Below, one piece after another: positions 6,629-47,060 of a stretch of DNA of 64,000 nucleotides (position 1 is its first letter; every line of letters begins with the position of its first letter). The position numbers were made by a program, and so were the translations under genes. This stretch comes from Candidatus Latescibacterota bacterium (GTDB lineage: Bacteria; Latescibacterota; UBA2968; GCA-2709665), in assembly GCA_965219995.1 (NCBI GenBank), contig CBDCOX010000002.1, forward strand, positions 768,001 to 832,000, in the 5' to 3' direction. The notes below the pieces were generated by a model, which was given only the letters and a program-made list of their open reading frames with translations, had not been told where the DNA came from and did no database searches.

Positions 6629-6673
6629 GGTCCCACTCAGGAATCTACGGACTCCTTCTCCATAGGTGACGCA

Positions 6674-23400: not shown

Positions 23401-26400
23401 TACGACGAGTACCGAAGGCCCGTCGTAAACGCCCGTTGCCGGATTCCAGCCCCGATCGGATGCCAGGTTGACGCTATAATGCAGGTAGTTGTTGCGGGTG
23501 TCCAGGATGCCGTTCTGGTTCAGGTCTTCGGAATCCGGCCTCTGTTCCCGTTCCCGATTGTTATTCTGAGTGCCGTTTACGCCGGAAGGATACCGGAAAC
23601 GAAGGTCCCCCTGGTCGAAGTCCACGTCCTTGAAGTTGTCATCCGACGGGTCGTCCGGCACGGTGACGCCAGGGAAGATCAGCCTGAAGACCGAATCTTC
23701 CTGAGCGTCGGTCAGGCCGTCCAGGCCGATATCCTCTTCGGGAATCGCCACGTCATCGCCGGTAGGAAAGCCCGGGAGAGGTTGGTCTTCGGTACGAAAT
23801 TGACCGGGAGGCGGCGGATTGAACGTCGCATGATCGAGCAGCAGATCGGACCGTTCGGAGATTTCACCGAGGTCGATGTGCAGCCGGCCCGAATTACCCC
23901 TTATCCAGAGTTCGATAAACTTGGATCGCGAGAAGTCCATTCCAAACAGGTACGATGAAATGCCCGCCCAGGAGTTTTGAGGGAGGCCGCCGGCCGAATT
24001 CCGTGAGGTCTCAGGAAAGCCGTTGGTACGATGTGGCTCGAACCGGATGCTGAGAACATCGTCCACAATACTGCTCTCCACCGGAATATCGTCTCGCCCC
24101 GGCTGAATTTCGTAGATCGAATACCGGTCGCGGTCCACGAGATTGTACCAGGTGAGGCGTCCCTTCGGCTCGGAAAGCGGGAGTCCGTTCCGCGTTGGGC
24201 TGCTGCCCGCGGACCAGACGTATTTGAAGGTGGAAAACGCCTTTCTGCTCTCGGCGCCTTCAAAATCGTCGATGTACGCCACGTTCTTGACGTTCGGGTT
24301 GGGCAAACTCTGTGCGACTTCCATGTCCACGTTGAATGCCGAGGGCGCCTGGGTGGAAATGAATGGCAGCCTGTTCACGAAGTCCGTGAGGATCTGCGGC
24401 TTGAAACGAAACCTGCCGTTCAAGTCCCAGATCAATGTGCGGGCCGGCTCCTCGCCAACGCGAACCCGCTGAGTCCTGGCGCTTTCGCTACCGTAAAGCA
24501 GGCTCATTCCCACCATGGAGACGTTGTCCCTGAACGGGTGTTCCGCCCGGATGCCGACGAGGCTCTTCTGCCCTCCACCCAATCCAAATTGGCTCTTGGA
24601 CCCGTAATTGATCACCAGGTTGGCGGAGGGATCGGCCGCGAGGTCCGCTGCTTCGCCAACCAACTCGACCTCTCCGCGTTCGTATTCGATGAGGTAGTCC
24701 CGCCCGCGTGTCAGCCGACGATTGTTCAGCAGGACCTCCTCGCTGTCTTCGATCAGGCCAAAGCCCAGGTAGAACGTCGTGGACCTGCTCTTCGAACGGA
24801 TGCGCAGGAAGTACTGACCCTTTTGCGCTCGTGTGGTGTTATTGGTGGTGTTGTAGATTTCGGGCACCCGGGCGTCGTCCGACAGCGCCTCCGCGCCGGC
24901 TCCGCGTTCACCAAATGGCTCCAGGTCCGGAAAAACAAGGTGGCCGGTCAGCAGATTGAGTCCGGGCAGGTTCGTGCCGCCGTCGATGTCGATGAGATTG
25001 TCCGGCGGGGAGGACTCCGAGGCGCCGTTGGTGTGCCTGTCCAGGCCGAAGATCTGGAGGTAAGGCGTACCGCGCTGGTTGTCAACCGCCTCCTGACCGG
25101 CCACGTCTCTGAGGATCTCCAGCTCAAAACCCTCCGGCTCGATGTCGCGGCTTCCCAGGAAGTACACATTTCGCCACGCGAGGTCCCAGGATGGGAATTC
25201 CGGTCGCTGCTGCCGGGCGTGAATGAGCTTCAGCCTGATCTTCGCGTCCGGATTCGACGGGTCCTGGATGAAATTCAGGTCGCCGAAGACGCGTCCGTCG
25301 GACGTCCGGTACGCGACCGCAAGCGTATGACCTCGCAGGACTCTCTGCCGGGTCATGATCAGATATCCCCTGGCGTCCACCAGAAACTCGGAGCGATCCA
25401 GTTCGTGGAAAAACCCCTCTTCGACGCCCCCGCTCTGCGCGCCATTGGCGCCTGCATCGGGCTCCGGGGCAGATCCGGTGGACCAGAACGCGTAAGCGAT
25501 CCCGCGCCCGGCGCGGTGCTCGATGTCGTTGCGGTCGTTGAAGTCGTTCAGGAAAACACGTACGGACCCGATGTCCACCAGGTCCTGACGGGCGGGTTCG
25601 TCCGGAAAGCTCCGGCGATACGCAAGATCGAGAAAGAAGTAACGGTTTTCTTCGTAATCATAGTCACGTATTCTGTGCGCGACTTCCTCCGCCTGCCCCT
25701 GGAAGGATTTCCGGTTGCTTGCGCCCCGGTCGTGGCTTGTAACCACCGTCACATCCAGTCCGCCCAGGCGTCCGCGGCCTTTAAGTCCGAACAGACCGCT
25801 TCGGTTGGACGAATTGAAGCCGACCAGCCGGGTGCCGGGCAGACTGAGCGACGTCCTGCCCGCCTCGATCTCCTGGATAATGTCGTCTTCGTCTCCGTCG
25901 TAACGGAATTGGAGCGACTCACTGATATCGGATTGACCGCGGCTGTCCTGCTGGAGGTTCAGCGTAATGCGGTCCCCGATGGTGCCCTGGACGTTCAGTT
26001 GGGATTCCTGCTCGAAGTTGACGGTGAATCCTTCGGCCGCCCTTGCACGTACGGTCTGCGCCTGTCCGCCCACCGTGGTATTCACGCCGGACAGGTCGAT
26101 GCGCCGCGATCCGGTAATCTTGATATTGGTGTCGCCTTCACCGGTAATGACACTCAGCGCCTTGGGTACCTTGACGGGAATCTTGATATCAACCAGCGCG
26201 CCGCCGACGCCCCGCCGCGCCCTCACGGGCAGGCTCAGCTTTTCAGCGGCCACGCGATCGAAATCCGCGTCGAATTTGTACGCGGTCAGGCCCTTCAAGG
26301 TGATGACGGCCGGTATCCCATGGACAACGTCGCCGCTGGCACGATAGACCATCAGCGTTCCGGTCCCGGCGCCAAGCAGGCGGGTCACCGTCTGGGTGAA

Positions 26401-26637
26401 CTGCCGCCGCTGTCGAAAGAGAGGTTGAAAGGCGGTGGTACGGGAAAAGGTCAGCTTTCCGGGGGAACGATGGAAGACGTGCGCAGGTGTCTTTCCGAGG
26501 GTGAATCGGATGCCCGGTTCGGCCTGGAGCGGGTCCGAATCGGCAAGCAGACACGTGCAAAAAGCCCAGGCGAAGACCGCACGCAACGGAAGGGACGATC
26601 CCCTTTGTGAATCTTTGAAAATGTTTGGGATCTGCAT
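20413..26637 (-). CDS. sprA: SprA-like large outer-membrane protein (T9SS translocon family)
   Basis: 2074 aa with signal peptide. SprA-type motifs YDGDEDDIIQEIEAG, GLFGLK, AYIDDFEG, LHIDLGEISE, PDSEDLNQNG.LD, EIWLDELR; beta-strand-rich C-terminal half. Confidence 0.85.
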   Translation of the reverse strand: MQIPNIFKDSQRGSSLPLRAVFAWAFCTCLLADSDPLQAEPGIRFTLGKTPAHVFHRSPGKLTFSRTTAFQPLFRQRRQFTQTVTRLLGAGTGTLMVYRASGDVVHGIPAVITLKGLTAYKFDADFDRVAAEKLSLPVRARRGVGGALVDIKIPVKVPKALSVITGEGDTNIKITGSRRIDLSGVNTTVGGQAQTVRARAAEGFTVNFEQESQLNVQGTIGDRITLNLQQDSRGQSDISESLQFRYDGDEDDIIQEIEAGRTSLSLPGTRLVGFNSSNRSGLFGLKGRGRLGGLDVTVVTSHDRGASNRKSFQGQAEEVAHRIRDYDYEENRYFFLDLAYRRSFPDEPARQDLVDIGSVRVFLNDFNDRNDIEHRAGRGIAYAFWSTGSAPEPDAGANGAQSGGVEEGFFHELDRSEFLVDARGYLIMTRQRVLRGHTLAVAYRTSDGRVFGDLNFIQDPSNPDAKIRLKLIHARQQRPEFPSWDLAWRNVYFLGSRDIEPEGFELEILRDVAGQEAVDNQRGTPYLQIFGLDRHTNGASESSPPDNLIDIDGGTNLPGLNLLTGHLVFPDLEPFGERGAGAEALSDDARVPEIYNTTNNTTRAQKGQYFLRIRSKSRSTTFYLGFGLIEDSEEVLLNNRRLTRGRDYLIEYERGEVELVGEAADLAADPSANLVINYGSKSQFGLGGGQKSLVGIRAEHPFRDNVSMVGMSLLYGSESARTQRVRVGEEPARTLIWDLNGRFRFKPQILTDFVNRLPFISTQAPSAFNVDMEVAQSLPNPNVKNVAYIDDFEGAESRKAFSTFKYVWSAGSSPTRNGLPLSEPKGRLTWYNLVDRDRYSIYEIQPGRDDIPVESSIVDDVLSIRFEPHRTNGFPETSRNSAGGLPQNSWAGISSYLFGMDFSRSKFIELWIRGNSGRLHIDLGEISERSDLLLDHATFNPPPPGQFRTEDQPLPGFPTGDDVAIPEEDIGLDGLTDAQEDSVFRLIFPGVTVPDDPSDDNFKDVDFDQGDLRFRYPSGVNGTQNNNREREQRPDSEDLNQNGILDTRNNYLHYSVNLASDRGWNPATGVYDGPSVLVVGSKSDPSDRPWRLLRIPLRGSNAPRSVEGNPDTTFAGVFDFARIWIEHDDTTSLDIYTIAAVGSDWLEDESPEHQQSGDFRVATIGTDNQVYELPPGLERETDPQTGRQLLERSLVLRFEDLYPGESVSASRTFTEGQNYTRYGLMTMFVHGGNPTSTTYEDNFPVGPDSTTGSFSPIELFVRFSPIGEDTLNFYEFRKPVYRGWSPEDNTFKIELDVLSQIKGKLTDLEATGQASDTLRLSLPTVEVLADYDSEANQIRADLHGGTYTVRGNPALSKIKSFVIGVTNNGVFPLEGENEIWLDELRVDRIRKKNAVSMLLNVQTTLADLGNVSLNLERRSGDFQDLQGRSTGNTTTQVSMNGSFNLNKFLPDRWNTAIPVRFNYLRNGSVPRIRQGSDIVLTDQQKSRESAVRASSRFNVSMRKRRATRDPRWIARLLFDRINASLNFLTNNAVSGAITRRRSNNEQNFNGSFSYDVNWPNQKGVRILNWVPLLGSRFEEVQFFYLPSTLRYNMRFDRKNINRRSFSAVEGDTSDVIAVLNQTFNLNESFVIKLTPFRSLTANYSLAVNRDLRNAFDVPRLQFGRETTRNQEVGFNFTPRVSRWLNVNTVYSSRFRERLETGGQRTSIGNERRGLSVNTNGRVGGRVSLNLPGLFRPLARPSKGQTGFSVIRLIGRLGGALEAVQANVTRNRNFNLYGLRRRPEFRFQLGLADTTSSPRYGSGGVSRVNTRNITDNATLKGGVRLPAGFRGDTHLTFNHVRSFGNANTEEQKLEFPSFSAQWRGLGELPVLRWLFASSNLNFNYKSNRIFRGDGGLDDNVLTSDTRRTDFRPLIRWQARWKNKMHTNFSTNRSRQNDLRYQRNVAADTTVAQPTLEERLIGTTITETSQFTASLRYSLSSKFFTKLQSNLDLTIEYGTSSSLKREIPRNAEATETEQAVVRQSDDRWHASLAGQYQFSSKFTGGTRFRHENRKDKLRDLNNRVWEFRVWGEIRFN

Positions 26638-33135: not shown

Positions 33136-34203
33136 TCAATCGATCCTGATTCGCTGAAGGTCGTACGAGTCGACGTTGTAGGGCTCGAAAGTGTCGTCGT
33201 CGCCGGGCGTATAGACCGCGACGTAGAGATTTCGATCGTCGTTATCGATGACGATGCCGCGTTCTTTGAGGTTTCCTGCCGCGAGAAGATAGTTCGTCTC
33301 CAGTTTTGTCTGCGTATTGAATTCGACGATGAACACACCCGCTTCATCGGCGTCCGTAGGCGCGACGAACAGACGTCGGCCGTCGCGGCTCAACGCAAGC
33401 CCCAGAGCGGGAGACTTGATTTCGTATTTGCCCGTCAGCGTCAGATCGCGGGCGCTGAATACCCACAGATCCTTGACGTTGCCGCGGTCATCCGGGTCCG
33501 CCAGCCCCAGAAAGAGATGGTCGTTGGAAGGTCCCATCACGAAATCGTTGATCCTGGCGGAGAAACTGAAGCGGGTTGACGTGGTTTCTGTCGATGGGAA
33601 ATGCCCTGAGGCGTCGTATTTCAGGACGTTGTTCCTGGCGGCAACGAAGAGCTTACGGTCGCCGTGGTCCATCAGCAGAGCGCCCGAACGCACATTCCCG
33701 CTGGTTTCCAGATTGTCTGCAATGGATACCGCAATCAACAGCGGTTCATCCAGCGAGGACACGTAAACAATCGAATCGGTCCCGCAGACGATGTGGGATA
33801 TGTCATTCAGCGAAAACGGAACTGTCTTAAGGATGGCGAACGCATTCAGGTCGATTACTTTCAGGTTCGATTCGCCGTTCAGGCCCACCACCAGACGGCG
33901 CCGGTCCGGGGTAATGTCGAGGTCGATGGGGTGCGAACCTACCTGAAGGCTCCCTTCCACCACCATCTGGCTGCCGGTGTGAACGCGGAGTATCCGGTTG
34001 TTTCCGTAGTCGGCAAGGTACAGATACGGCTGGACCGGGTCCATGACCATATCAGAGATGTTCACGCCGAGTTTCAGGATCTCGAAATCTGTGAATTCGT
34101 AAAACTGCTCCGGCTCTTCGTCGTCTAAATAGAGCGAACAGCCCGAGACGAGAAGAAACACGGACAGAACAAGAAAAAGGAATCGGCCGCCTGTCTTTCC
34201 CAT
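33136..34203 (-). CDS. YncE/YVTN-like beta-propeller lipoprotein
   Basis: Lipobox LVSG-C; repeats VGSHPIDLDITPD, LALSRDGRRLFV, IDNDDRNLYV. Alternative start at 34239. Confidence 0.75.
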   Translation of the reverse strand: MGKTGGRFLFLVLSVFLLVSGCSLYLDDEEPEQFYEFTDFEILKLGVNISDMVMDPVQPYLYLADYGNNRILRVHTGSQMVVEGSLQVGSHPIDLDITPDRRRLVVGLNGESNLKVIDLNAFAILKTVPFSLNDISHIVCGTDSIVYVSSLDEPLLIAVSIADNLETSGNVRSGALLMDHGDRKLFVAARNNVLKYDASGHFPSTETTSTRFSFSARINDFVMGPSNDHLFLGLADPDDRGNVKDLWVFSARDLTLTGKYEIKSPALGLALSRDGRRLFVAPTDADEAGVFIVEFNTQTKLETNYLLAAGNLKERGIVIDNDDRNLYVAVYTPGDDDTFEPYNVDSYDLQRIRID

Positions 34204-34222
34204 GAGGAGAATGCCGGATCGC

Positions 34223-35188
34223 CTAAAAAGAGAAGACATAGGACGTGCTCAGTTCAATCAGATAGTCGGACGTCAGCTGGCTCTCGTTCACGTTCTGGAA
34301 TACGACGATGGGCAGGTGAAATTCAACGCTCAGATTGTCCAGGACATTGATCCCCAGTTCCGGCGTAAGATACGTCCACCTCCCGCCGCGTTCCCTTGTA
34401 ATCTTGCCGAACTGGTATCGGTCTCTTGACGTGATCAGGTTTTTCAAACTCAAGCCGCCGAAGAACCAGCCTTCGCCCGCATATTCCAGAGACAGGCTTG
34501 CGTGCAGTTCGTTTCCGTATTTGTAGCCGTAGATGTTCTGCCGTGTGGTGATGCGTGTGAAGACGCCACCGGAGACCGTCAGGTCTTCGAGTTGATGAAA
34601 CACATTGAACGCGAGAATCGGATCCACGCTTCCTGATCCAATCTGAAGATTGTCGGAGAAACGCTCGCCGTATTGGTCTATTGCATTAACGGATCCGTTT
34701 GCCAGCTTCATTCCAACGCCGACATTCATAGCGGGAAAACCCGCTATCAGAGGTGCGGCGTAATTCAACATGACCACGATATCGCCCAGGCCGGAAGCAT
34801 GCCGGACATACTTCCCTCCCTCATATTGATTGTGGTTCTGGCCGCGCAGAAGCACCTTTTCGTTGGTCACGGAACGAAAAGGGACGGCCAGCGCGAGACC
34901 GATGCGTCCGGTCACACCGTACGAGGCGAAGACGGTGGTCGTGGCATTATCGGTTCGCTCACGATTGACGTTCGGTATCGCGCGAGACCCGTAGTGGGGG
35001 TCGGACAGGAACTCGTAATCGTAGTGAACGCTGAGCTTCAGATGGTCCTGTACGCCCAGATTGTTCTGCATCAGGCTTCCGCCCGGAAGCACGGGGCGGC
35101 GTCAGCTGACGCCGCCTTGAGCGTTGGCGGCCTGGGCCGTGATGAATTGCGTTAAAATGAACAGGCAGAACGCTGAGTACAAACGCAT
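34223..35188 (-). CDS. putative selenocysteine-containing outer-membrane beta-barrel protein (in-frame TGA at 35102-35104)
   Basis: RBS GAGGA and ATG 35188 give a signal peptide MRLYSAF...AANA-QGGVS, then TGA, then the same frame continues RRPVLPGG... to a C-terminal YVFSF. Motifs GLGDI and LQIGSGSVD. Hairpin 11 nt after the TGA. Confidence 0.75.
35075..35090 (-). promoter_or_regulatory. candidate bacterial SECIS hairpin
   Basis: UGA, 11 nt, GCUUCC-GGGC-GGAAGC; the loop begins with G. Confidence 0.6.
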
Positions 35189-35356
35189 ACGGGGTTTCCT
35201 CGTTCCCTGGGTTTTAAACTGGAGGCTGGCGTCCGGGTTTCGCGGGTTGAAATATACCTTACATGCGCCTGGATGGCAAGGCGGATTTTGGTTCATGAGT
35301 CCACATAGAGCCCAAATTTACATATCTTTACATAACCCGCCGCCGCTCGTTTTCGC

Positions 35357-35385
35357 TTGACACCACCTGGCGATTGCGCTATCTT
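35357..35385 (+). promoter_or_regulatory. tRNA operon promoter
   Basis: TTGACA, 17 bp, TATCTT upstream of tRNA-Arg. Confidence 0.7.
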
Positions 35386-35429
35386 TATCCACCGCTTTTC
35401 AGCGGACGGCTTCGTGCGCCGGACTTGTG

Positions 35430-35519: not shown

Positions 35520-35597
35520 GGTGGGTGTAGCTCAGATGGTTAGAGCGCCTGGTTGTGGCCCAGGAGGTCGGGGGTTCAAGTCCCCTCACTCACCCCA
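35520..35597 (+). tRNA. tRNA-His(GTG)
   Basis: G-1, GTGGGTG/CACTCAC acceptor, TTGTGGC anticodon loop, C73, encoded CCA. Confidence 0.96.
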
Positions 35598-35671
35598 TTT
35601 TTTTCGCTTTCTCTGGCCTTTGGTTCTCTGTCGGTTGTGGACCAGAGGTTTTTTCACGTCCACCACATTCC

Positions 35672-37033
35672 ATGATTTCGGCCGACCACCTTCGAAGCGA
35701 GCCGTTACGGGCGATGATTATCGGCCTGGATGGTACTCCATGCAGTCTGATACACCGGATGGTCTCCGACGGCCTGATGCCGAATTTCGCGAACCTGCTG
35801 CAGGGCGGAAGCCTGTCGTATATGGAGTCCGTATTGCCCACGGTCTCATCGGTGGCCTGGGCGTCGCTGGTAACCGGGTGCAATCCGGGCAAGCACAATA
35901 TCTATGGCTTCATCGATCGTGTGCCGCAGACCCACGAAATGTACATCCCGACGTCCCGAACAATGCGAGCCAGGACGTGGACGGAGATTTTCAGCGGGAT
36001 GGGCGGGCGTGTCTTTTCCATGGGCGTGCCGACGACCTACCCCCCAAAGCCGGTGAACGGCATTCAGATTTCGGGCTTTCTGGCGCCGGACTTGAAACGG
36101 GCAACCTATCCCACCGATGTGGCAGACCTGTTGTCTGAGATGGGGTACAAAATCGACATTGACGCGTGGCTAGCCCGCCGGGACACGGAGAGATTTCTGG
36201 ACGATGTATTCCGGGCTCTGGAGCGACGGTTCGACGCGATGTTCCACTTCCTGGACCAGGAGCCATGGGACCTGTTTGTCGCGCATGTTCTGGAAACGGA
36301 CAGATTGCACCATTTTCTGTGGGGACTTTTTGAGGACGGCAGCGAGACTTATCTGCCCTGGTTCAACCGGTTTTATGCCCGGGTTGACCGTGCCATCGGA
36401 GAAGTCACGAACCGCCTTGACGACGACGTATTGCTGATGATTGTATCCGACCATGGATTCTGCAAGTTGAAGTATGAAGTACATTTGAATTTCTGGCTTC
36501 GACAGGCAGGCTATTTGCGTACCCCGGTTCGACAGGCCAAAGGACTTCGCGACCTGGCGCCGGGCTCGCGTTGTTACTCACTGTTGCCCGGGCGCATGTA
36601 TATCTCTCTGCGCGGCCGCGAACGCGGTGGATGCGTGGCGCCCGGGGCGGAGTACGAGTCAGTGAGACAGGACATCGCCGACGGACTGATGGAGATCCGA
36701 AATCCTGTAACGGGTGTACCGGTGATCCGGAGGGTCTTCAGGCGCGAGGAACTCTATACCGGCGATGCATTCGACCTGGCGCCGGACCTGGTGGCCATGC
36801 CGGAGGACGGGTATGATTTGAAGGGTGGATTCGACAAAGAGGAATTGATGACGCGCGGTCCGGTAAACGGCACCCATACCTTCTCGGACGCGATGTTTTT
36901 TGTCAATCGCAAGGTGGATTTATTGCCACGGCTTCGCGTGATCGACGTGTTTCCGACGCTTTTTGATGCCGTCGGTCTGAACGTCCCTGCCGGTGTCGAC
37001 GGGCGGTCCGTCGTTGCCGGCAGCGTGAACTGA
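35672..37033 (+). CDS. alkaline phosphatase superfamily / type I phosphodiesterase-nucleotide pyrophosphatase
   Basis: IIGLDG, S.AW.SL.TG.NPGKH.IYGF, ETDRLHH, VSDHGF, GTH. The start must lie after the tRNAs (ATG 35672). Confidence 0.88.
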   Translation: MISADHLRSEPLRAMIIGLDGTPCSLIHRMVSDGLMPNFANLLQGGSLSYMESVLPTVSSVAWASLVTGCNPGKHNIYGFIDRVPQTHEMYIPTSRTMRARTWTEIFSGMGGRVFSMGVPTTYPPKPVNGIQISGFLAPDLKRATYPTDVADLLSEMGYKIDIDAWLARRDTERFLDDVFRALERRFDAMFHFLDQEPWDLFVAHVLETDRLHHFLWGLFEDGSETYLPWFNRFYARVDRAIGEVTNRLDDDVLLMIVSDHGFCKLKYEVHLNFWLRQAGYLRTPVRQAKGLRDLAPGSRCYSLLPGRMYISLRGRERGGCVAPGAEYESVRQDIADGLMEIRNPVTGVPVIRRVFRREELYTGDAFDLAPDLVAMPEDGYDLKGGFDKEELMTRGPVNGTHTFSDAMFFVNRKVDLLPRLRVIDVFPTLFDAVGLNVPAGVDGRSVVAGSVN

Positions 37034-37105: not shown

Positions 37106-37738
37106 ATGAAACCTGGAGATTTCGCTTTCGGAAGCGTCTTGTCGAAATTGTTCCTGATTGCGCTCGCAACGGGTGTATCGGCGGCTTTCGCTCACGCCGA
37201 CCGCGGCCACGTGCTGGACACCAGCGAAGAGAACATGGAGCGGATCGCCGGGTCGCTCGGGGTACGGTGTAGTTACTGTCATACCTCACGGAGGCCGGAT
37301 GGAAGACCTGACTTCGAAGCGCCTTCCCTGTTCAAGGAGACAGCCGTCCATATGAAGGTACACTTTGTGGACGGCCTGAAAACCGCGGATGGGAAATCGC
37401 TGGACTGCCTGTCCTGCCACCAGGGGAACGCCCGATTTATTCCGCGTGACCTCAAGGATGCCAAACCGTCCAACATGTCCGAGCGGCTGCCCCGGCGGGA
37501 GATCTTTCGGAAGATGAAGGCCATTGAGAAGGCGCTGGGGGTTAACTGCGAATTCTGCCATGTCAGGCGCGAAGACGGACGCCTCGCCCCGGAACAGCCG
37601 ACGAAGCACAAGCTGATGGCCAAATACATGATGGACCACTACGAGGGTGCGTTGATCACGTCAGGCGGGAAGCCGGTCACCTGCGCAACCTGCCACGCGG
37701 GTACAGCTGCATTTCTGCCGCGCTCGACGGGTGAGTGA
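37106..37738 (+). CDS. secreted tetraheme c-type cytochrome (PufC-like repeats)
   Basis: Signal peptide (AHA) and four CxxCH motifs: CSYCH, CLSCH, CEFCH, CATCH. Confidence 0.88.
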   Translation: MKPGDFAFGSVLSKLFLIALATGVSAAFAHADRGHVLDTSEENMERIAGSLGVRCSYCHTSRRPDGRPDFEAPSLFKETAVHMKVHFVDGLKTADGKSLDCLSCHQGNARFIPRDLKDAKPSNMSERLPRREIFRKMKAIEKALGVNCEFCHVRREDGRLAPEQPTKHKLMAKYMMDHYEGALITSGGKPVTCATCHAGTAAFLPRSTGE

Positions 37739-37815: not shown

Positions 37816-40800
37816 CTATGAACAGCCCACCGAATTCCCGCAATTCAGGCAGCGATAGCACGAGCCGTTACGGACCGTAATGTGACCGCACGTGTCGCAA
37901 AAAGGCGCATCCCCCATCATCCGCGAGAGTTGATCGTCGAGGACCATGGTTTGAGGATGCGCGTGCGCTTCCGTATGGGATGACGATCCATTGGACGCGG
38001 TTTGTTGTGAACCGGCGCCGTTGGCCGCCGGATTGGCTTTCGGGGCCGGGTCTGCCGGCGGGGAAGCGCCCTGAGTGTCGGCGGGTACGCCGGGCGACAC
38101 GGAACTCCGGGAAGAGAGTGAAATCATTTCGGTTTCCAGGTCCTGGTGGTCGTTGATGTCCGGAGCGATATCTTCGGGTTTGACTTGCAGAAAGTCCGTC
38201 CGGCCAAGGTATTCATAGCCCAGGACACGGAAGATATAATCGATGACGGAAGTCGCGAATTTTATGTTGGGGTGATCGACGGATCCCCACGGTTCGAAAC
38301 GCGTAAAAGTTAAGCGGTCCACGAACTCTTCGAGGGGTACACCGTGTTGCAGACCCTTGGAAATGGCGATGGCGAAGCAGTCCAACATGGCGCGAAACGG
38401 CGCACCCTCTTTGCTCATGTCGATGAAGATTTCGCCGAGAGTACCGTCTTCGTATTCACCCGTGCGCAAGAAAACCTTCTGGTTGGCCACGCGCGCCTCC
38501 TGGGTGAATCCGCTTCGTTTCTTAGGGAGGCGCCTCCTGGTGGGCCGCGTCGCCAGCGGAACGGGCTCCGGCTTTGATTTTCCGGATGCACCTGCCAATG
38601 ACTCATCGCGCGATGCGACCGCCTCGGCGGCTTCCTCGTTCACGTCCGATTTGGTTGCCGTACTCAACGGCTGCGAGAGTTTGGAGCCGTCTCGATAGAT
38701 GGCCACGGCCTTCAGGCCCAGATTCCAACCCTTGACGTAAAGATCTTCAATCTCTCCCGTGGTGGTTTCGCCAGGGACGTTTACGGTCTTGGAAATGGCT
38801 CCGCAAATAAACTTCTGGGCGGCGGACATCATGCCTAGATGCGCCATCGGGGCAATAAAGCGTTTGCCATGTCTGCCACACTTGTTGGCGCAGTCGAATA
38901 CGGCCAGATGCTCATCTTTGAGATGAGGCGCACCTTCAATGGTCATTCGGCCGCAGACGTATTCGCTGGCTTCGTTGACTTGCATTTCGGTAAAGCCGAG
39001 TTCAGCGAGCAGATTGAAGCCGGGGGCGTTGTACTGTTCCGGAGCGTAGCCCAGGCGTTGCATCAGTGCTTCGCCGAGAATCCAGGGTGTGAAGGCGAAT
39101 TCCAGTTCAAGAACGCCTGGCAGTGCGCCTTCCGCCTTTTTCAGATCCACCGGGCCGAATCCCTTCGCCATTAACGACTCGGCGTTGACGTGCGGCGCGT
39201 CAATCAGGGTCAGCCTGCCGCAGAGGTAGGCCAGAATGTCGGCAATTTCCGCCTCGGAATAACCGAGGTGCTCCAGAGCCCTGGGCACGGCGTGGTTGAC
39301 AATTTTGAAATAGCCACCGCCGGCAAGCTTTTTGAACTTGACCAGGGCGAAATCGGGTTCGATTCCGGTGGTGTCGCAATCCATCAGAAGGCCGATGGTG
39401 CCGGTTGGCGCGATGACGGTGGCCTGTGCGTTACGATAGCCGTATTTTTCACCCAGTTCAACCGCAAGGTCCCAATCTTCCCTCGCGGCACGAAGCAGAT
39501 CGTCCGGGCACGCGTGAGCGTCGATATTGAACGCGGCATCGCGGTGCATGTTCATGACGTTGAGCATGGGACCGCGGTTCTTTTCGAAGCCCGGAAACGG
39601 ACCCTTGTCGGCCGCCATGCGGGCCGAGGTCGCGTAGGCCTGACCGCACATAATTGCGGTGATGGCGGCGCAGATGGCCCGTGCGCCGTCGCTGTCGTAG
39701 GGCAATCCCTGTACCATCAGAAGCGTTCCCAGGTTGGCATAGCCGAGACCCAGGGGGCGGTAATCGTGGCTGTTCCGGGCGATCATCCGGGTGGGATAGG
39801 ATGCGAAATCGACCAGGATTTCCTGTGCGATGAAAAAGATTTTGCAGGCATAACGGAAACCGTCGATGTCGAAGGTGCCATCCTCATCGAGGAACTTCAT
39901 GAGGTTGATTGATGCGAGATTGCACGCCGTGTCGTCGAGGAACATAAATTCCGAACACGGGTTCGATCCGTAGATGCGGTCGGTGTTGGCGCAGGTGTGC
40001 CAGCGGTTGATGGTGCTGTCATACTGCATGCCGGGGTCGGCGCAGGCCCAGGCGGCTTCGCCGATCTGGCGCATGAGATCGCGGGCCTTGTGCGTTTCGT
40101 AGACTTCGCCGGTCGTGCGAAGCCGGGTGTGCCATTCGCCGTCGTCTTTGCAGGCCTGCATAAACGCGTCGGTGACGCGGACCGAGTTGTTTGAGTTCTG
40201 GCCGGAGACCGTCTGGTAGGCTTCACCGTTGAAGTCGGAACTGTAGCCGGCTGCCATGAGCGCCGCGACCTTCTTTTCTTCTTTTACCTTCCAATTGATG
40301 AAATCGAGAATTTCAGGGTGGTCCATGTCCAGACAGACCATTTTGGCGGCTCGCCGCGTCGTCCCGCCGGATTTGATGGCGCCGGCACCTTTGTCGAGGA
40401 CCTCCAGAAAGGACATCAGGCCGGATGAGACCCCACCACCGGAGAGCTTCTCCATTTTCCCGCGGATTTTCGAGAAATTCGTACCCGTTCCGGATCCGTA
40501 TTTGAAGAGACGAACTTCGCTCTTCAGCAATTCGAAAATGTCCATGGTGTCGTCCTGGACGGATTGAATATAGCAGGCGGAACACTGGGGATGGGAATAC
40601 GAGTCTTTGGTTTCCGATACGGAATTTCCGTTCCAGTGCCAGTTGCCGCCGCTGCCTTGAATCCCGTATTCGTGGTACAGTCCGCAATTGAACCAGACCG
40701 GCGAGTTGAATGCGCCCATCTGATGCACGAGATGGTAGGCAAGTTCCGCTTCGAATGTATCGGCGTCTTCGGTTGAGTCGAAATATCCGCCCTGTTTTTC

Positions 40801-41067
40801 TCCGGACCTGCGGATGGTGTGGGCTACCCGGTGCATGACCTGCCGAACGGAGGTTTCATGTCCCGTCTCGGGCACTCCTCGCTTTCTGAAATATTTCGAC
40901 ACGACGATATCCGTTGCCAGCTGGGACCAGCCGGCCGGGACTTCGGCATCGTCCATGCGAAAAACTTCAGATCCGTCGGGATTGGTAATGACGGATGTTT
41001 TCTTAATGTATTCGACCTGGTCCAGCGGATTCCGGCCGGGCGTGGTCTGCCTGCGTTCAAGCTTCAT
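37816..41067 (-). CDS. nrdJ: class II (adenosylcobalamin-dependent) ribonucleotide reductase
   Basis: FNSPVWFN, PQCSAC, GGTTRRAA, SNPCSEF, APTGTIG, TSCPD-like domain, C-terminal CxxC..CxxC; RBS GGAGG before ATG 41067. Confidence 0.96.
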   Translation of the reverse strand: MKLERRQTTPGRNPLDQVEYIKKTSVITNPDGSEVFRMDDAEVPAGWSQLATDIVVSKYFRKRGVPETGHETSVRQVMHRVAHTIRRSGEKQGGYFDSTEDADTFEAELAYHLVHQMGAFNSPVWFNCGLYHEYGIQGSGGNWHWNGNSVSETKDSYSHPQCSACYIQSVQDDTMDIFELLKSEVRLFKYGSGTGTNFSKIRGKMEKLSGGGVSSGLMSFLEVLDKGAGAIKSGGTTRRAAKMVCLDMDHPEILDFINWKVKEEKKVAALMAAGYSSDFNGEAYQTVSGQNSNNSVRVTDAFMQACKDDGEWHTRLRTTGEVYETHKARDLMRQIGEAAWACADPGMQYDSTINRWHTCANTDRIYGSNPCSEFMFLDDTACNLASINLMKFLDEDGTFDIDGFRYACKIFFIAQEILVDFASYPTRMIARNSHDYRPLGLGYANLGTLLMVQGLPYDSDGARAICAAITAIMCGQAYATSARMAADKGPFPGFEKNRGPMLNVMNMHRDAAFNIDAHACPDDLLRAAREDWDLAVELGEKYGYRNAQATVIAPTGTIGLLMDCDTTGIEPDFALVKFKKLAGGGYFKIVNHAVPRALEHLGYSEAEIADILAYLCGRLTLIDAPHVNAESLMAKGFGPVDLKKAEGALPGVLELEFAFTPWILGEALMQRLGYAPEQYNAPGFNLLAELGFTEMQVNEASEYVCGRMTIEGAPHLKDEHLAVFDCANKCGRHGKRFIAPMAHLGMMSAAQKFICGAISKTVNVPGETTTGEIEDLYVKGWNLGLKAVAIYRDGSKLSQPLSTATKSDVNEEAAEAVASRDESLAGASGKSKPEPVPLATRPTRRRLPKKRSGFTQEARVANQKVFLRTGEYEDGTLGEIFIDMSKEGAPFRAMLDCFAIAISKGLQHGVPLEEFVDRLTFTRFEPWGSVDHPNIKFATSVIDYIFRVLGYEYLGRTDFLQVKPEDIAPDINDHQDLETEMISLSSRSSVSPGVPADTQGASPPADPAPKANPAANGAGSQQTASNGSSSHTEAHAHPQTMVLDDQLSRMMGDAPFCDTCGHITVRNGSCYRCLNCGNSVGCS

Positions 41068-41387
41068 AGGAGTACTTCCTCCGGATTTCTGGAATTGACT
41101 CAAATCGCAAAACGATTGGGAACCTGACTGATCGAACAACGGCTCGTTACAGGCCGCGTTTTTCCTTCGCGGCCGACACCGGGTGTTCCGTCTCGGATTC
41201 AGGTCGCCGGCACTCGGCCGACGAATCGCCCGTCTCATTGCGATAACACGACGAGACGGAATAAGCCGAATGGCGACTCAAGCGAGGGACGGGACACGAG
41301 AAGTTGTTGGCGAAATCATACGTTGAAGACGCATCTGAAGGGGAATGGCGCGTCCGTGTTACGTGGGGCAAGGGGAGGTAATCGGGT

Positions 41388-42092: not shown

Positions 42093-44495
42093 TCAAGGAG
42101 ATGGCACGGCCAGGCTCCGGTCTTTAAACGCCAACCTCTTACCTGAAACGACCGCGTGTGAGAGGTAGCTGCCGTCGGAACGGGTCCTTACGATCGCGCA
42201 AATCGCATCCGTGCCAAGTTCGTCCGCACCGAACGTGCGGTACGAACCGTCTGAAATAACAATGTGGTCCACGATGCCGGCGTGTTCCACGAGCAGGTAG
42301 GCGGTGCCGTCCGGCCCGTCATTTTCACCGCGACGGACATTCACCCTGGGCAACGGCATGCTATCGAAGGGATAGAGAACCACGGCAAGGTCGTCCACCC
42401 GGCCGCTGCCGGAGGTCGTCTGGTCCAGCGATGCCCACCGGATGGGCTGCCGGGCGGGCCGAAGGTCCGTGATCCCGCCGAGATGCGCCATGCCGGTGCC
42501 CTGGCGCACGGCCGGGCCGTCGGGCGTAACCACAAGCAGGCCGGGCGCCGCGGCGGAGAACACGGCGCTACCGCCTCGCTGCAGCGGGGTGGGGGAGTGC
42601 AGCATGAACGAGGCCGTCCGGGACTTGCCGTCGGACGAGAACGCGTCGAATACCAGGAAGTAGGGATTCACCTCCTGTTCGGGACCCGTTGGTTTCAGGA
42701 ACAGAAAGTGCCGGCGATGCGCGACCCCCAGGGAGCGGTAGCCCTGGTGTTCGGCGGCAAAGTAGTCCATGCCCTCCCGGCTGCTCCACACCGGCTGCTC
42801 TCCCACAGCGGCCCGACGATCCAGGTTCCTGCCGTCGATCACCAGCATGTTATGTGCTTTGGAGGTAATATACCAGGGCCGGTGGAGCGGGTCGTCATAG
42901 CTGACGCCGAGGCCGGCGTCGACAGCCAGCGCCTTGCCGTAGGCGAACAGCTCGAAGCTGAGGATGTCATAGTGATAGTGCCCGCCTGCCCAGGGACCGT
43001 AATTGATGACCATATACGGACTGTTCCGCGTCCAATCCATGCGCATCACGGCGAAGCCCGACGGCCGGAAATCCATCGACGTTTCGGCAGGCGGCGCGAC
43101 GTCGTCGTCTATGTCGGCGCCCAGCAGGTTTCGGGCCACCCAGAGCATGTCGGGCCGATTGAAAACACGTCCGCCATCGACAAAGACATTGCGGTCGAAG
43201 CGTGCCCGACCACCGTCGTTCACAGCGGGCTGGGTGCCCAATGGGCTGATCAGGTACATCCAGTGGTTCAGGGTGCGTTCGAGGGGCGGACGCAGGGCCG
43301 AAGCGCGTTCGTCGTAGCCTCCGAACTCTTCCAGGAGGTGGGCGAGATTCCTCGGGTCGCGATAGGCGACATTGGAATAACTGGAAGGGCATCGTTCGGA
43401 GTGGCATCCGTCCTCGTAGAAATCTCTCTCGAGATGCTGCTCCATGCGAAAGACGCCAAGGGAGACCCAGCGGTCGGCGTCCCTGAACTCGGGGAAGTTG
43501 AGGCCCAACTCGGCCAGGGCGTAGGTCCCCATCACCTGCCAGTTGCCCGATCGGTATCCCTGCTTTTGCAATTCGTACAGCCAGCGCGACGAACCCAGGA
43601 AGTTTTTCAGGATCCGTTCATGAGTCGTTGGTGAGAGCCTGCCGCGATTCAGGCGGTAGAACTCCAGGAATACGCGGTTTCGACGGGCGCCGAGACCGAG
43701 TTCGTACCAGATCGGATCCTTGTCCTCGTATGCCCCCACGACGTCGTCACGCTGCTCGTACCACTGATTGAAGAGTTCGTCGAAGGCATCCAGATACTTT
43801 GTTTCACGCGTGCCCAGATACGCCCACAGCAGGGGCTGGGACCATTCCCAGTAGTGAAAACCGTATTTTCCGCCCCTGCCGTAGTCCGCGTTGAAATCCA
43901 CGACAGGACCGTGCTGGATGTTAACGCCGCCCCATCCCGTGATATTATGGGCGGCCAACCGGTCCGCCGCGGCGGTATACGATTTCGTGCTGAAGTACCG
44001 GAATGCTTCTTCGATGGTGTAGTAGGGTATTCCCGTATTGACATATGCATACCCGGGACGAGCGTCCCAGTAAGTACCCCACGCTTTGTAGGCGGCAGCG
44101 AAGTCCCCCTGTTCAACCGCGTGTTTCACATCCTCGAGTCCGACCCGGCTCAGGTCCATCGCGGCGAAGAGATCGGGGTCGCTGATGTGCTTGATCTGCT
44201 GATCAAGATAGACGGGATCTTCGCGGAGATCGGCTCTGGCCGCACCAAAGGCCTCTGCAAAAAGAATGAAGTCACGGAAGCCGACCTGCCCGTCGAGGTT
44301 CAAATCGAAACGGTCGTCGAAGGTGCCGTCGGACCGTGACGTACCATAGTGCCGGGCAAAGGCGACGAAGTCTGCGAAGTCCACAAGACCGTCGCCGTTG
44401 AAGTCTCCGGACAAACCGGACCAGGCGGCAGCGTGCATCAGCAGGGCAGCCGCGAGCGAGGTCAGGCGGTTCCAACGTACGACTCTGCTGGCCAT
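42093..44495 (-). CDS. secreted heparinase II/III-like polysaccharide lyase with N-terminal dockerin/EF-hand module (paralog 1)
   Basis: Signal peptide; GDFNGDGLVDFADF...DLNLDGQVGFRDF; GNWQ, DGCHSE...Y, SGFAVMR, GHYHYDILSFEL, AHNML. Confidence 0.85.
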   Translation of the reverse strand: MASRVVRWNRLTSLAAALLMHAAAWSGLSGDFNGDGLVDFADFVAFARHYGTSRSDGTFDDRFDLNLDGQVGFRDFILFAEAFGAARADLREDPVYLDQQIKHISDPDLFAAMDLSRVGLEDVKHAVEQGDFAAAYKAWGTYWDARPGYAYVNTGIPYYTIEEAFRYFSTKSYTAAADRLAAHNITGWGGVNIQHGPVVDFNADYGRGGKYGFHYWEWSQPLLWAYLGTRETKYLDAFDELFNQWYEQRDDVVGAYEDKDPIWYELGLGARRNRVFLEFYRLNRGRLSPTTHERILKNFLGSSRWLYELQKQGYRSGNWQVMGTYALAELGLNFPEFRDADRWVSLGVFRMEQHLERDFYEDGCHSERCPSSYSNVAYRDPRNLAHLLEEFGGYDERASALRPPLERTLNHWMYLISPLGTQPAVNDGGRARFDRNVFVDGGRVFNRPDMLWVARNLLGADIDDDVAPPAETSMDFRPSGFAVMRMDWTRNSPYMVINYGPWAGGHYHYDILSFELFAYGKALAVDAGLGVSYDDPLHRPWYITSKAHNMLVIDGRNLDRRAAVGEQPVWSSREGMDYFAAEHQGYRSLGVAHRRHFLFLKPTGPEQEVNPYFLVFDAFSSDGKSRTASFMLHSPTPLQRGGSAVFSAAAPGLLVVTPDGPAVRQGTGMAHLGGITDLRPARQPIRWASLDQTTSGSGRVDDLAVVLYPFDSMPLPRVNVRRGENDGPDGTAYLLVEHAGIVDHIVISDGSYRTFGADELGTDAICAIVRTRSDGSYLSHAVVSGKRLAFKDRSLAVPSP

Positions 44496-44648
44496 TCAGA
44501 TTTCCGCTGTTTGCGGCCTCTTTGTGCGTACGACCTGGCAAACGGATGGATTGGATGACTCGCCTCCGCGGCGCTCCCTGACCCGACGCCGGACCGATCA
44601 ACCGTCGTCCGCTCAATTCCCGTACGGCGAAAACGGACGGATTTCGGC

Positions 44649-47060
44649 TCAGGGGGACGACACGTCGAGACGTACATCCCTGAACGTCAGCCTCGTGCCG
44701 GAAACGGCCGCGTGTGAGAGGTAAGCGCCGTCCGAGCCGGTCCTGACGACAGCGCAAATCGCATCCGTTTCAAGGTCGTCCGCGCCAAACGTGCGATAGG
44801 AGCCGTCGGAAATGATGATGTGATCCACGATGCCGCCGTGCTCCACGAGCAGGTACGCCGTGCCCGTCGGCCCTCCGTTCTCCCCGCGGCGGACCCCCAC
44901 TTTGGGCAGCGGCATCTGCCGGAAGGGATAGAGGACCACCGCGAGGTCGTCCACATGGCCGTCGCCGGAGGTCATCACGTCGAGTGCGGCCCACCTGATT
45001 GGCCGCCGGGCGGGGCGCTGGTTCGGAATGCCGCCGAGATGCGCCATTCCGGTGCCAAGTCGAATGGCAGGCGCATCGGGCGTAGCCACGTACAGGCCGG
45101 GCGCTCCGTTGGAGTATACGGCGGTTCCGCCTCGCTGCAGCGGGGTGGGGGAGTGCAGCAGGAAGGACGCCTTTCGGCGTTGGGCGTCTGAGGAGAACGC
45201 ATCGAATACCACGAAGTACGGATTCGCCTCCTGCGCGGGCTCCACGGGTTTCACAAACAGGAAATGCCGTCGATGGCGGACACCCAGTGATCGGTAACCC
45301 TGGTGTTCAGCGGCAAAGTAGTCGATGCCTTCCCGGTGGCTCCAAACGGGTTTCTCGCCGACGGCAATCCTGCGATCCAGGTTCGCGTCGTCAATCACGA
45401 GCATATTGTGCGCCATGGACGTCTTGTACCAGGGGCCGTGGAGCGGGTCATCGTAGCTGACACCGATCCCGGCGTCGACGGCCAGCGCGCTGCCGTACGC
45501 GAAGAGTTCGAAACTGAGTACGTCCGGATGGGAATGCCCGCCGCCGTACTCCCCGTAGTTGATGACCAGATAAGGACTCGCCCGCGTCCAATCCATTCGC
45601 ATCACGGCGAAGCCCGACGGCCTGAAATCAATCGACGTTTCGGAAGGCATCTCTACGGGGTCGTCGATGTCGGCGCCGAGCAGATTTCTGGCCACCCAGA
45701 GCATGTCAGGCCGATCGAAAGCGCGTCCGCCATCAATGAAGATGTTCCGGTCGAACCGGCCCCGGCCGCCGTCGTTGACGGCAGGCTGGGTGCCGAGGGG
45801 GCTGATCAGGTACATCCAGTGGTTCAGCGTGCGTTCCAGCGGCGGGCGAAGGGCGGCCGTCCGGTCTTCATGGCCGCCGAATTGCTCAAGGAGATAGGCC
45901 AGGTTTCGCGGGTCGCGGTAGACGATTGTGGAATAGCTGGACGGGCAACGCTCGGAATGGCAACCGTCTTCATAGAAGTCTTTCTGAAGGTGCTCTTCGA
46001 TCCGGTACACGCCCTGTGAGGTCCACCGTTGCGACTCCCTGAACTCCGGCATGTTGAGGCCCAGCTCCGCCAGGGCATAGGAGCCCATCACCTGCCAGTT
46101 GCCCGAACGGTACCCCTGCTTCTCCAGTTCGTACAGCCAGCGCGCCGACCCGAGGAAGTTCTTCAGAATCCGCTCGTGAGTCCGTACCGAAAGCCGTCCT
46201 CGGTTCAGGCGGTAGAATTCCAGGAATACGCGGTTCCGGCGCGAACCGAGGCCGAGTTCATACCAGATCGGGTCCAGGTGCGCGTAGGCGCCTTCAACGT
46301 CGTCACGCTGTTCGTACCACTGATTGAAGAGTTTGTCGAAAGCATCCAGATATTTCGTGTCCCGCGTGCCCATATACGCCCACAGAAGCGGCCCCGACCA
46401 ACCCCAATAGTGAAACCCGTATTTGCCGCTTCTGCCGTAATCCGCGTTGAAATCCACGACAGGACCGTGCTGGATCGTGACGCCGCCCCATCCGGTGATG
46501 TTGTGTGCGACGACGCGGTCCGCCGCCGCCGTATAGTTCCTCGTGCTGAAGTACTGGAATGCCTCATCGATGGTGTAATAGGGGACGCCGATGTTGATAT
46601 AGGCGAATCCGGGCCGGGTGTCCCAGTAGGTTCCCCACGCTATGTAGGCGGCGGCGTAGTCTCCCCGGTCGACGGCGCGTTTCACATCCTCGAGCCCGAC
46701 GCGGTTCAGATCCATCGCGGCGAAGAGATCCGGATCGCTGATATGCTTGATCTGTTGATCAAGGTAGACGGGATCTTCGCGGAGATCCGCTCTGGCGGCG
46801 CCGAAGGCCTCTGCAAAGAGAATGAAGTCACTGAAGCCGACCCGCCCGTCGAGGTTCAGATCGAAACGGTCGTCGAAGGTGTCGTCGGACCGGGACGTAC
46901 CAAAGTTCCTGGCAAAGGAGACGAAGTCCGCGAAGCCCACGAGACCGTCGCCGTCGAAGTCTCCGGACAGACCGGGCCAGGCGGTTGAGAACGTCAGTGC
47001 GACGACAAGAAACGGTACAAATCGATTCAGCCGCAGGCGTCGAGACGTCATCCTTGTCAT
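44649..47060 (-). CDS. secreted heparinase II/III-like polysaccharide lyase with N-terminal dockerin/EF-hand module (paralog 2)
   Basis: Same architecture as 42093..44495; GHSHPDVLSFEL; long segments identical to paralog 1. Confidence 0.85.
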   Translation of the reverse strand: MTRMTSRRLRLNRFVPFLVVALTFSTAWPGLSGDFDGDGLVGFADFVSFARNFGTSRSDDTFDDRFDLNLDGRVGFSDFILFAEAFGAARADLREDPVYLDQQIKHISDPDLFAAMDLNRVGLEDVKRAVDRGDYAAAYIAWGTYWDTRPGFAYINIGVPYYTIDEAFQYFSTRNYTAAADRVVAHNITGWGGVTIQHGPVVDFNADYGRSGKYGFHYWGWSGPLLWAYMGTRDTKYLDAFDKLFNQWYEQRDDVEGAYAHLDPIWYELGLGSRRNRVFLEFYRLNRGRLSVRTHERILKNFLGSARWLYELEKQGYRSGNWQVMGSYALAELGLNMPEFRESQRWTSQGVYRIEEHLQKDFYEDGCHSERCPSSYSTIVYRDPRNLAYLLEQFGGHEDRTAALRPPLERTLNHWMYLISPLGTQPAVNDGGRGRFDRNIFIDGGRAFDRPDMLWVARNLLGADIDDPVEMPSETSIDFRPSGFAVMRMDWTRASPYLVINYGEYGGGHSHPDVLSFELFAYGSALAVDAGIGVSYDDPLHGPWYKTSMAHNMLVIDDANLDRRIAVGEKPVWSHREGIDYFAAEHQGYRSLGVRHRRHFLFVKPVEPAQEANPYFVVFDAFSSDAQRRKASFLLHSPTPLQRGGTAVYSNGAPGLYVATPDAPAIRLGTGMAHLGGIPNQRPARRPIRWAALDVMTSGDGHVDDLAVVLYPFRQMPLPKVGVRRGENGGPTGTAYLLVEHGGIVDHIIISDGSYRTFGADDLETDAICAVVRTGSDGAYLSHAAVSGTRLTFRDVRLDVSSP

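Follow-up and report, generated by a model that had tools for sequence, protein, structure and literature searches.

Does an in-frame UGA at codon 29 of a predicted outer-membrane protein gene end a short open reading frame (ORF), or does it encode selenocysteine (Sec)? This question is raised by a stretch of 64,000 nucleotides from Candidatus Latescibacterota bacterium (contig CBDCOX010000002.1, positions 768,001 to 832,000), referred to here as the window and numbered from its first letter, in which a reading of the sequence alone had joined two ORFs on the minus strand into one hidden selenoprotein gene. Following our analyses, we take it as very probable that this is a genuine selenoprotein gene, the founding example here of a widespread family that appears not to be listed among known selenoproteins. 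From the comparative sequence evidence presented below, we consider it highly likely that the hairpin following UGA 29 causes this codon to be decoded as Sec, and that the product is a secreted outer-membrane barrel. The features of the locus are as follows.

34223..35188, minus strand: putative read-through selenoprotein gene, 321 codons plus TAG with one in-frame TGA; the same frame and single TGA are found in relatives
35197..35201, minus strand: GAGGA, from its sequence a likely ribosome-binding site, 8 nt 5' of the ATG at 35188-35186
35120..35188, minus strand: putative signal peptide, residues 1-23, with A-N-A before Gln24, by sequence inspection
35078..35119, minus strand: mature N-terminal motif QGGVS-U-RRPVLPGG (U, candidate Sec), residues 24-37, with selection at the amino-acid level on either side of the TGA in the codon tables
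35102..35104, minus strand: UGA codon 29, candidate Sec and mature residue 6; TGA in 54/54 distinct aligned sequences
35075..35090, minus strand: hairpin GCUUCC-GGGC-GGAAGC, resembling a Sec insertion sequence (SECIS); conserved core 35076-35089, loop 35081-35084
34226..35044, minus strand: predicted beta-barrel domain, residues 49-321, with terminal Phe (AlphaFold2, Foldseek, Pfam PF13557)
33136..34239, minus strand: lipoprotein beta-propeller partner gene, with a likelier start at ATG 34203, 19 nt past the barrel stop

The layout proposed by the sequence-only reading was recovered when the letters were read again: a start at ATG 35188, a signal peptide, TGA at codon 29 and an open frame to YVFSF. 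Residues 1-23 are MRLYSAFCLFILTQFITAQAANA, which by direct reading has a basic start, a hydrophobic core and an A-N-A end. After this leader the minus strand reads QGGVS, the TGA at 35104-35102 and RRPVLPGGSLMQNN, and the 292 open codons 3' of the TGA end in YVFSF and the TAG at 34225-34223. Under translation table 11 the same DNA gives an ORF of 289 amino acids from GTG 35092 (with the start VLPGGSLMQNN) and an ORF of 64 amino acids stopping at the TGA. The two make most sense as one gene, as had been claimed, because the downstream ORF has no hydrophobic leader of its own and because relatives conserve the sequence on either side of the TGA. The mature barrel protein contains no Cys residue at all.

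The in-frame UGA among relatives

A six-frame search of 61 related genomes detected the gene in 20 of them. Within the genus there are two copies per genome, both in the window's genome (G000) and in all of the 14 others, one orthologous (79-94% identity) and one paralogous (about 52%). Exactly one in-frame TGA is present in every copy in these 15 genomes and in both genomes of a second genus. The paralogue in the window's own genome (G000:C2:249120-250070, corresponding to 6121-7071 of locus L101; about 52% identity) has the same TGA and hairpin. In all 33 copies excised from the related genomes an ATG stands 28-32 codons upstream and is followed by a hydrophobic leader and the motif AQ[GP]GVS-TGA-RRPVLPGG. 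The family is patchy in the Marinimicrobia-type order of carrier genome G063, where it was found in 5 of 61 genomes, each time with one TGA.

The search was also made in species genomes (one genome per species) and in metagenomes, and the homologues found there keep the TGA at its column with similarity on both sides of it. In the species genomes the TGA stands at the column in 55 of 56 loci, and the sole exception, L099, covers only residue 123 onward. Four of the 56 (L073, L074, L099 and L100) had been missed or skipped by the pattern step and were inspected singly. The record titles of these loci name Latescibacterota, Gemmatimonadota (labels of metagenome-assembled genomes, MAGs), KSB1, Calditrichaceae, Neomarinimicrobiota/Marinimicrobia, Fidelibacterota and 'FCB group'. 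Among the metagenome loci TGA is present in 56 of 62, namely 55 with the full motif and L163, and the other six are cut at the 5' end. The motif pattern used for the metagenomes missed seven loci, among them L163, which was read separately; it is the most diverged of all (28% identity) and reads GVK-TGA-ASPNLPVGG. In no locus with a readable 5' end is TGG, TGT, TGC, TAA or TAG found at the Sec column.

The codons around the TGA were tabulated over 54 distinct stretches of 60 nt. The codon 5' of the TGA encodes Ser by AGC (43 rows), AGT (6), TCC (3) or TCA (1) and Asn by AAC in the remaining row, and both Arg codons 3' of the TGA are drawn from CGN and AGR. Because a swap between the Ser or the Arg codon families takes at least two base changes, this variation shows that it is the protein sequence that is under selection. 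Further upstream, the leaders of all relatives are built alike, from an ATG and a basic residue through a hydrophobic stretch to A-x-A or a comparable end, and their length (24 to 36 codons before the TGA) changes by whole codons only. On cleavage Sec would be residue 6 of the mature protein in the window and residue 4 in some lineages.

Whether the TGA might be an error was checked against contigs of other samples, in which it is retained: contigs of three runs from other studies are identical at 35102-35104, and the one from run X7 (record 18) spans 34230-35297. An assembly error or a strain-specific nonsense mutation is ruled out by these contigs together with the TGA in the genus genomes, and on these comparisons the TGA is neither an error nor a nonsense mutation. 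The runs compared were X1, X5, X6 and X7, with a sponge label on X6 and X7 only. DNA nearly identical to 33900-35400 was also seen in runs X5-X13, which come from several studies and are labelled sponge, coral and marine metagenomes.

The hairpin and the selenocysteine machinery

The hairpin was found 11 nt past the TGA, where it had been reported, with GCUUCC at 35090-35085, GGGC at 35084-35081 and GGAAGC at 35080-35075. The minimal SECIS element of E. coli fdhF has the same 11-nt spacing. In the alignment the conserved core is one pair shorter, with five base pairs (CUYCC-NGGN-GGRAG) lying 12 nt past the UGA and a loop that begins 17 nt past the UGA; at the outer, sixth position a standard base pair is found in just 33 of 54 distinct sequences. 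The five core pairs are formed in 54 of 54 distinct rows, and RNAalifold on the alignment returned the same five. Across the motif strings of all loci, five of five pairs are formed in 68 of 70 distinct strings and four of five in the other two.

The middle pair lies between the third positions of a Leu codon and a Gly codon, and its combinations among 58 distinct sequences are CTC/GGG (37), CTT/GGA (19) and the wobble combination CTT/GGG (2), with CTC/GGA absent. The covariation score is 0.229, compared with 0.132 +/- 0.016 for shuffled alignments, and none of 500 shuffles reached 0.229; a control in which the partner was slid gave at most 70.1% paired cells. We also followed this pair on a FastTree phylogeny of 95 distinct downstream protein sequences from which the hairpin's own codons had been excluded. 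Rows were taken with a degenerate match to the TGA motif and at least 230 amino acids, leaving out duplicates, L163 and the loci cut at the 5' end. This tree requires at least 11 switches of the middle pair between C-G and U-A; seven U·G states occur and no C·A. The string TGA-N12-CTYCC-NGGN-GGRAG occurs three times on both strands of the 5.4-Mb genome, and two of these occurrences are the gene and its paralogue. The SECIS-like hairpin is conserved with compensatory synonymous changes, and its distance from UGA to loop equals that of the genome's own selD element. The elements compared were the following.

selD of the same genome, with its own in-frame TGA: 10 nt, then a 7-bp stem, loop GGUC, loop after 17 nt
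Barrel gene and paralogue: 11-12 nt, then a 5-6-bp stem, loop GGGC, loop after 17 nt
Two Prx-like genes with in-frame TGA: 10 nt, then a 6-bp stem, loops AGUU and CGGGU, loop after 16 nt
Two SelW-like genes: 5-6-bp stem, loop GUU, loop after 22 nt
Barrel locus L163 (28% identity): 10 nt, then a 7-bp stem, loop AGUU, loop after 17 nt

The selD element and the barrel hairpin are thus alike in lying within the coding sequence past the UGA and in having a G-containing 4-nt loop 17 nt after it. They differ in the stem, which has 5 conserved base pairs in the barrel hairpin versus 7 in selD, and no bulged U was seen in the barrel hairpin.

A perfect palindrome, GGCGGCGUCAG/CUGACGCCGCC, lies at 35091-35116 on the minus strand, centred just before the UGA, and could bury the UGA in a second stem. 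As a longer lower stem of the hairpin this was rejected, since the third bases that it needs are not retained in (AT-rich) relatives; in 16 of 54 rows the Val codon preceding the Ser has A or G as its third base. The palindrome therefore appears to be lineage-specific.

The check for selA, selB, selC and selD in the window's genome found all four: selA (473.8 bits), selB (366.8 bits), a tRNA-Sec (anticodon tca) beside selA and selB, and selD with an in-frame TGA. SelA is present in all 15 genomes of the genus and, in the sample of relatives, in 16 of 17 carrier genomes; it was not found in G018, a genome that is 80% complete. Of five carriers from other phyla, three have both SelA and SelB. 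G018 has both a selD with an in-frame TGA and tRNA-Sec-type matches that exceed the gathering score; such a selD is also present in G062, and such tRNA matches were obtained in G063. No carrier was shown to lack a Sec system. Further genes with an in-frame TGA, belonging to known selenoprotein families, were seen in the window's genome, with two SelW/Rdx-like and three AhpC/TSA-like matches (4668900-4669118, 2280023-2280232, 3765042-3765533, 439894-440163 and 5157666-5157893 of G000:C2), which suggests that the organism has a sizeable selenoproteome.

Barrel fold, partner genes and the weighing of readings

The sequence-only reading had likened the protein to barrels of the MetA-pathway type. 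Pfam gave one match, PF13557 (Phenol_MetA_deg), at residues 95-288, which is above the cut-off but marginal (24.5 bits, cut-off 22; E 3.3e-5), and this likeness was therefore recovered, though weakly. For the read-through protein no model of NCBIfam release 20 matched at E <= 0.01. The AlphaFold2 model (mean predicted local distance difference test score, pLDDT, 75.9) is all-beta and closed, starting at residue 49 after a short helix (residues 36-41), and DSSP splits the strands of the barrel model into 15 pieces. The best Foldseek match was FapF (5o65; E 1.2e-13, template modelling (TM) scores 0.62/0.66, 14% identity), and the COG4313 channel Pput2725 (4rl8) was also matched (E 2.6e-10, TM 0.65/0.76, 12% identity). 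Structure prediction thus points to a COG4313/FapF-like barrel, and the modelled fold resembles these 12-stranded channels. In Pput2725, according to an excerpt of PMC4493636, the first 14 or so mature residues enter the lumen from the periplasmic side and occlude it, and Asp7 lines the constriction. By analogy, the channel would hold Sec inside it or at its mouth.

An exhaustive profile search returned 2,028 proteins at E <= 0.001. Among the full-length distant relatives that were fetched, seventeen (about 80-125 bits) have a mature start Q-G-C-C-[ST]-x-G-x-P or near variants. This sister barrel family (P0086-P0217, L166 and L167) is homologous over its full length (hhalign probability 100%, E 2.4e-46), and its two members in the window's own phylum, L166 and L167, read AQTCSCAGAP. 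The earlier hint that related barrels have N-terminal Cys motifs is accordingly well founded, as the sister family begins Q-G-C-C or Q-T-C-S-C. The two families share the spacing from the cleavage-site Gln to the conserved Pro and have chalcogen residues in the same N-terminal segment. They differ in that the sister genes contain no in-frame TGA and that the three members scanned gave no Pfam match. On these alignments chalcogen residues mark the same short N-terminal segment, without a strict Sec/Cys pair.

Neighbouring genes were compared in 21 chosen loci from all lineages and the window, 22 in total. The propeller lipoprotein gene is directly downstream of the barrel gene in 19 of these. 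In the window its start at ATG 34203 gives MGKTGG...LLVSGCS, all 14 aligned sequences have the lipobox Cys, and there are weak matches to SGL/lactonase and YVTN-type propellers. No other Cys is invariant in these 14 sequences, and a propeller Cys as the partner of Sec was consequently dropped. A thioredoxin-fold protein with an invariant WCxxC is encoded upstream of the barrel gene in 11 of the 22 loci. It is not beside the window orthologue, whose neighbours are the propeller lipoprotein, an HD protein, a phosphodiesterase and a cytochrome. The paralogue has the WCxxC redoxin directly upstream, an NHL-repeat propeller just before the redoxin and an S-adenosylmethionine methyltransferase downstream. 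An FG-GAP/ASPIC protein adjoins the barrel gene in 14 of 22 loci, and two of three examples scanned have a type IX secretion tail. The two genomic examples of the sister family, L166 (375-1487, minus strand) and L167, both Cys-x-Cys barrels, each have downstream not a propeller but a lipoprotein of the DUF3179 type, in which a TYCPLTG motif is present. The propeller and the DUF3179 partner are unrelated (hhalign probability 1%). DUF3179 is given as a selenoprotein family (UxxC/T) in an excerpt of a 2026 review (PMC13188914). It may be a general feature of this barrel superfamily that its members are partnered by periplasmic lipoproteins carrying a thiol or selenol.

Taken together, these observations suggest the following sequence of events. 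Translation from ATG 35188 would produce the signal peptide and then meet the UGA at codon 29, where the hairpin past it would recruit SelB with Sec-tRNA(Sec), and Sec would be inserted in place of termination. Export and cleavage at A-N-A/Q would give a mature start QGGVS-U-RRPVLPGG, with the remainder forming an outer-membrane barrel of the COG4313/FapF type. The N-terminal segment with its selenol might then fold back into the lumen from the periplasmic side, as in the solved COG4313 channel. Judging from the gene neighbourhood, Sec could be a reactive or ligand residue for channel passage or gating, with soft metal, sulfur or selenium species as candidates; it may work with the adjacent lipoprotein propeller, and the periplasmic WCxxC redoxin may keep it reduced or recycle it. 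A periplasmic thiol reductase beside a lone selenol suggests that Sec is kept or returned in the reduced state, which fits a role as ligand, relay or gate. In a more specific version, the selenol would be a covalent relay in the lumen, capturing sulfur or selenium species or a soft metal at the cell surface as a Se-S, Se-Se or Se-metal adduct which the redoxin and the propeller release in the periplasm. We regard this version as possible but rather unlikely. If it were true, the protein would be the first outer-membrane uptake channel using chalcogen-exchange chemistry and could be the missing route dedicated to the entry of selenium or reduced sulfur into the abundant Marinimicrobia of the sea and the Latescibacterota of sponges, and the Cys-Cys or Cys-x-Cys sister family would be the sulfur-only version.

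A number of observations weigh against these conclusions. The covariation is carried by only one core pair of a short hairpin, and the other four of the five pairs are (almost) invariant, which is partly explained by the conservation of L-P-G-G in the protein. A single-sequence minimum-energy fold of the first 60 nt prefers a different pairing, and an Rfam scan of 34950-35250 with E up to 10 gave six matches at chance level and no SECIS family. SelA and SelB were not found in the carrier MAGs G062 and G063, nor SelA in G018, and the presence of SelA is not discriminating because it is nearly universal (57 of the 61 relatives and 53 of 61 genomes in the Marinimicrobia-type order of G063). Cys is absent from the exact Sec column in all homologues, an unusual situation for a selenoprotein; Cys homologues at the Sec position are a usual feature of selenoprotein families, not a defining one. 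MAFFT places the Sec column one residue past C-S-C and two to three past C-C, and a hand alignment on L-P-G would set the second Cys of C-S-C on Sec, so that hand and program disagree. Glu or Pro is found at the column in the distant homologues P0093 and P0072 (one each), and Ser in two close metagenomic homologues, P0015 (SSRRPALLGG) and P0019 (GSRHPVLPGG). It had been stated in advance that homologues with Trp, Arg, Gly or Ser here, rather than Cys or TGA, would speak against Sec; the two Ser homologues partly do so, and they are outweighed by more than 100 conserved TGA codons. The placement of Sec in the lumen is weakened by the low confidence of the N-terminal segment, with pLDDT below 50 at residues 14-37 of the Sec barrel and 16-35 of the sister-family model. 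The chemical role of Sec in the channel is a reasoned guess from the neighbouring genes.

The TGA could instead be a leaky or regulatory stop without Sec, at which the ribosome is slowed by the hairpin and now and then a tRNA for Trp, Cys or Arg, near-cognate to UGA, gives read-through, keeping the barrel at a low, tuned level. UGA followed by C or A is a leaky stop context, and the small hairpin, the lack of a Cys-for-Sec homologue, the failure to find SelA and SelB in G062 and G063, and the Trp printed at the column in database proteins P0037, P0038, P0060 (these three full length) and P0075 would all suit this explanation. However, had Trp, Cys or Arg been a working residue, TGG, TGY or CGA, each one base change away, would be expected among more than 100 diverged copies, and none occurs in readable DNA. 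The proteins with Trp, which come from a source of short metagenome contigs, have nearly identical DNA relatives (L082, L098 and L083) in which the codon is TGA, and for this reason the Trp residues most likely reflect gene calls made with genetic code 4. Also against a mere leaky stop are the agreement in loop position and type with the selD element and the presence of SelA in all 15 genus genomes and in 16 of the 17 carriers among the relatives; the three carriers in which SelA was not found show a selD with TGA or tRNA-Sec matches. We therefore consider decoding without Sec improbable. Still less probable, to the point that we give it hardly any weight, is that there are two separate ORFs through gene decay or assembly error, a 28-codon leader and a barrel starting at GTG 35092 or ATG 35069. 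Public gene calls do treat the locus in this way, most of the 69 database homologues having 282-289 amino acids from a start just past the TGA, with five of full length. An outer-membrane barrel translated from the downstream ORF would, however, have no signal peptide, and from phylum to phylum the leader, its frame and the motif right before the TGA are retained while synonymous positions vary. The shifts of leader length in whole codons, the same TGA in contigs of other studies, and its retention in both paralogues in all 15 genus genomes also argue for one continuous gene.

A further alternative accepts Sec but not channel chemistry: Sec insertion could be a selenium-supply switch on barrel synthesis, or Sec could serve for anchoring or cross-linking, for instance by a selenylsulfide to a partner. 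With no Cys in the mature protein any Se-S bond would be intermolecular, a WCxxC redoxin gene is adjacent in half of the compared loci, and the relatives with Ser suggest that the barrel presumably folds without Sec. On the other hand, GG[VI]S-U-RRP is conserved at the protein level beyond what an RNA element needs, which argues for a functional site rather than a mere switch, the propeller offers no conserved Cys other than that of the lipobox, and the Cys-Cys or Cys-x-Cys of the sister family in the same segment points to a shared chemical role. On balance we find such a switch or cross-link unlikely, and the reading of UGA 29 as a Sec codon for a functional site in the barrel is the one preferred here.

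Known systems and the surroundings of the locus

The COG4313/PF13557 channels, with Pput2725 of Pseudomonas putida F1 (4rl8) as the example, are of similar size and also have a short N-terminal segment before the first strand. The Sec barrel is unlike them in having Sec in this segment, in its own motifs (RGQNxNQYxGGKY, YGYKYGNE, RERGG and NESQL) and in being linked to the lipoprotein propeller and the redoxin rather than to genes of aromatic degradation. In FapF the barrel has 12 strands and is plugged from its N-terminal side; in the Sec barrel about 25 mature residues precede the barrel and there is no long coiled-coil N-terminal domain, and no fap-type genes were found beside the barrel among the annotated loci.

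Literature searches gave nothing relevant joining selenocysteine with COG4313, MetA-pathway or Phenol_MetA_deg, and no COG4313 selenoprotein. The sequence-only reading had contrasted an outer-membrane Sec protein with the mostly soluble oxidoreductases among known bacterial selenoproteins. Selenoproteins of the outer membrane are not without precedent, as Table 1 in the excerpt of PMC13188914 includes two predicted outer-membrane Sec proteins, the GSU2204-family MtrB/PioB-type barrel (NF041027) and a TonB-dependent receptor with an FCYXU motif (NF049945). The Sec barrel belongs to neither, because neither model (nor NF041374) matched at E <= 0.01, and it differs from both in barrel type, in the position of Sec (mature residue 4-6) and in its partner genes. 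No PF13557-type barrel was seen in the 119-family table as excerpted from PMC13188914, and the supplements of large surveys, such as a groundwater MAG study, could already contain the family. It appears to be missing from the lists of known selenoproteins.

If Sec insertion is confirmed, a widespread, extracytoplasmic family without a thioredoxin fold would be added to the approximately 119 prokaryotic selenoprotein families counted in the excerpt of PMC13188914. The family is spread over phyla of the FCB group, including the ocean-abundant Marinimicrobia and lineages associated with sponges and corals. The Global Ocean Sampling survey, as excerpted from PMC2398784, discovered selenoproteins through Sec/Cys pairs at one column, and with no strict pair in this family such methods may miss it. 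Public annotation hides both the signal peptide and the Sec behind leaderless calls of 282-289 amino acids named 'transporter' (the label of a truncated form in one NCBI record) or hypothetical. A lone Sec in a plug segment beside a periplasmic thiol reductase would offer a concrete test case for whether selenol chemistry serves in outer-membrane transport or gating.

Other genes in the window were also noted. Divergent from the barrel gene are a gene of the type I phosphodiesterase/nucleotide pyrophosphatase family (35555-37033, plus strand) and one for a small multihaem c-type cytochrome (37106-37738, plus strand), a pairing with the barrel that is limited to close relatives (three compared loci). 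An ORF of 2,074 amino acids at 20413-26637 (minus strand) matches SprA_N, of the type IX secretion translocon, and this fits the type IX tails on the FG-GAP/ASPIC neighbours of the barrel gene in other lineages. On the minus strand there are also a class II (B12-dependent) ribonucleotide reductase with a TSCPD domain (37816-41238), two tandem heparinase II/III-like genes (42093-47060) and a TonB-dependent receptor (48515-51589). These last genes are ordinary context and fit a polysaccharide-degrading, host- or particle-associated lifestyle.

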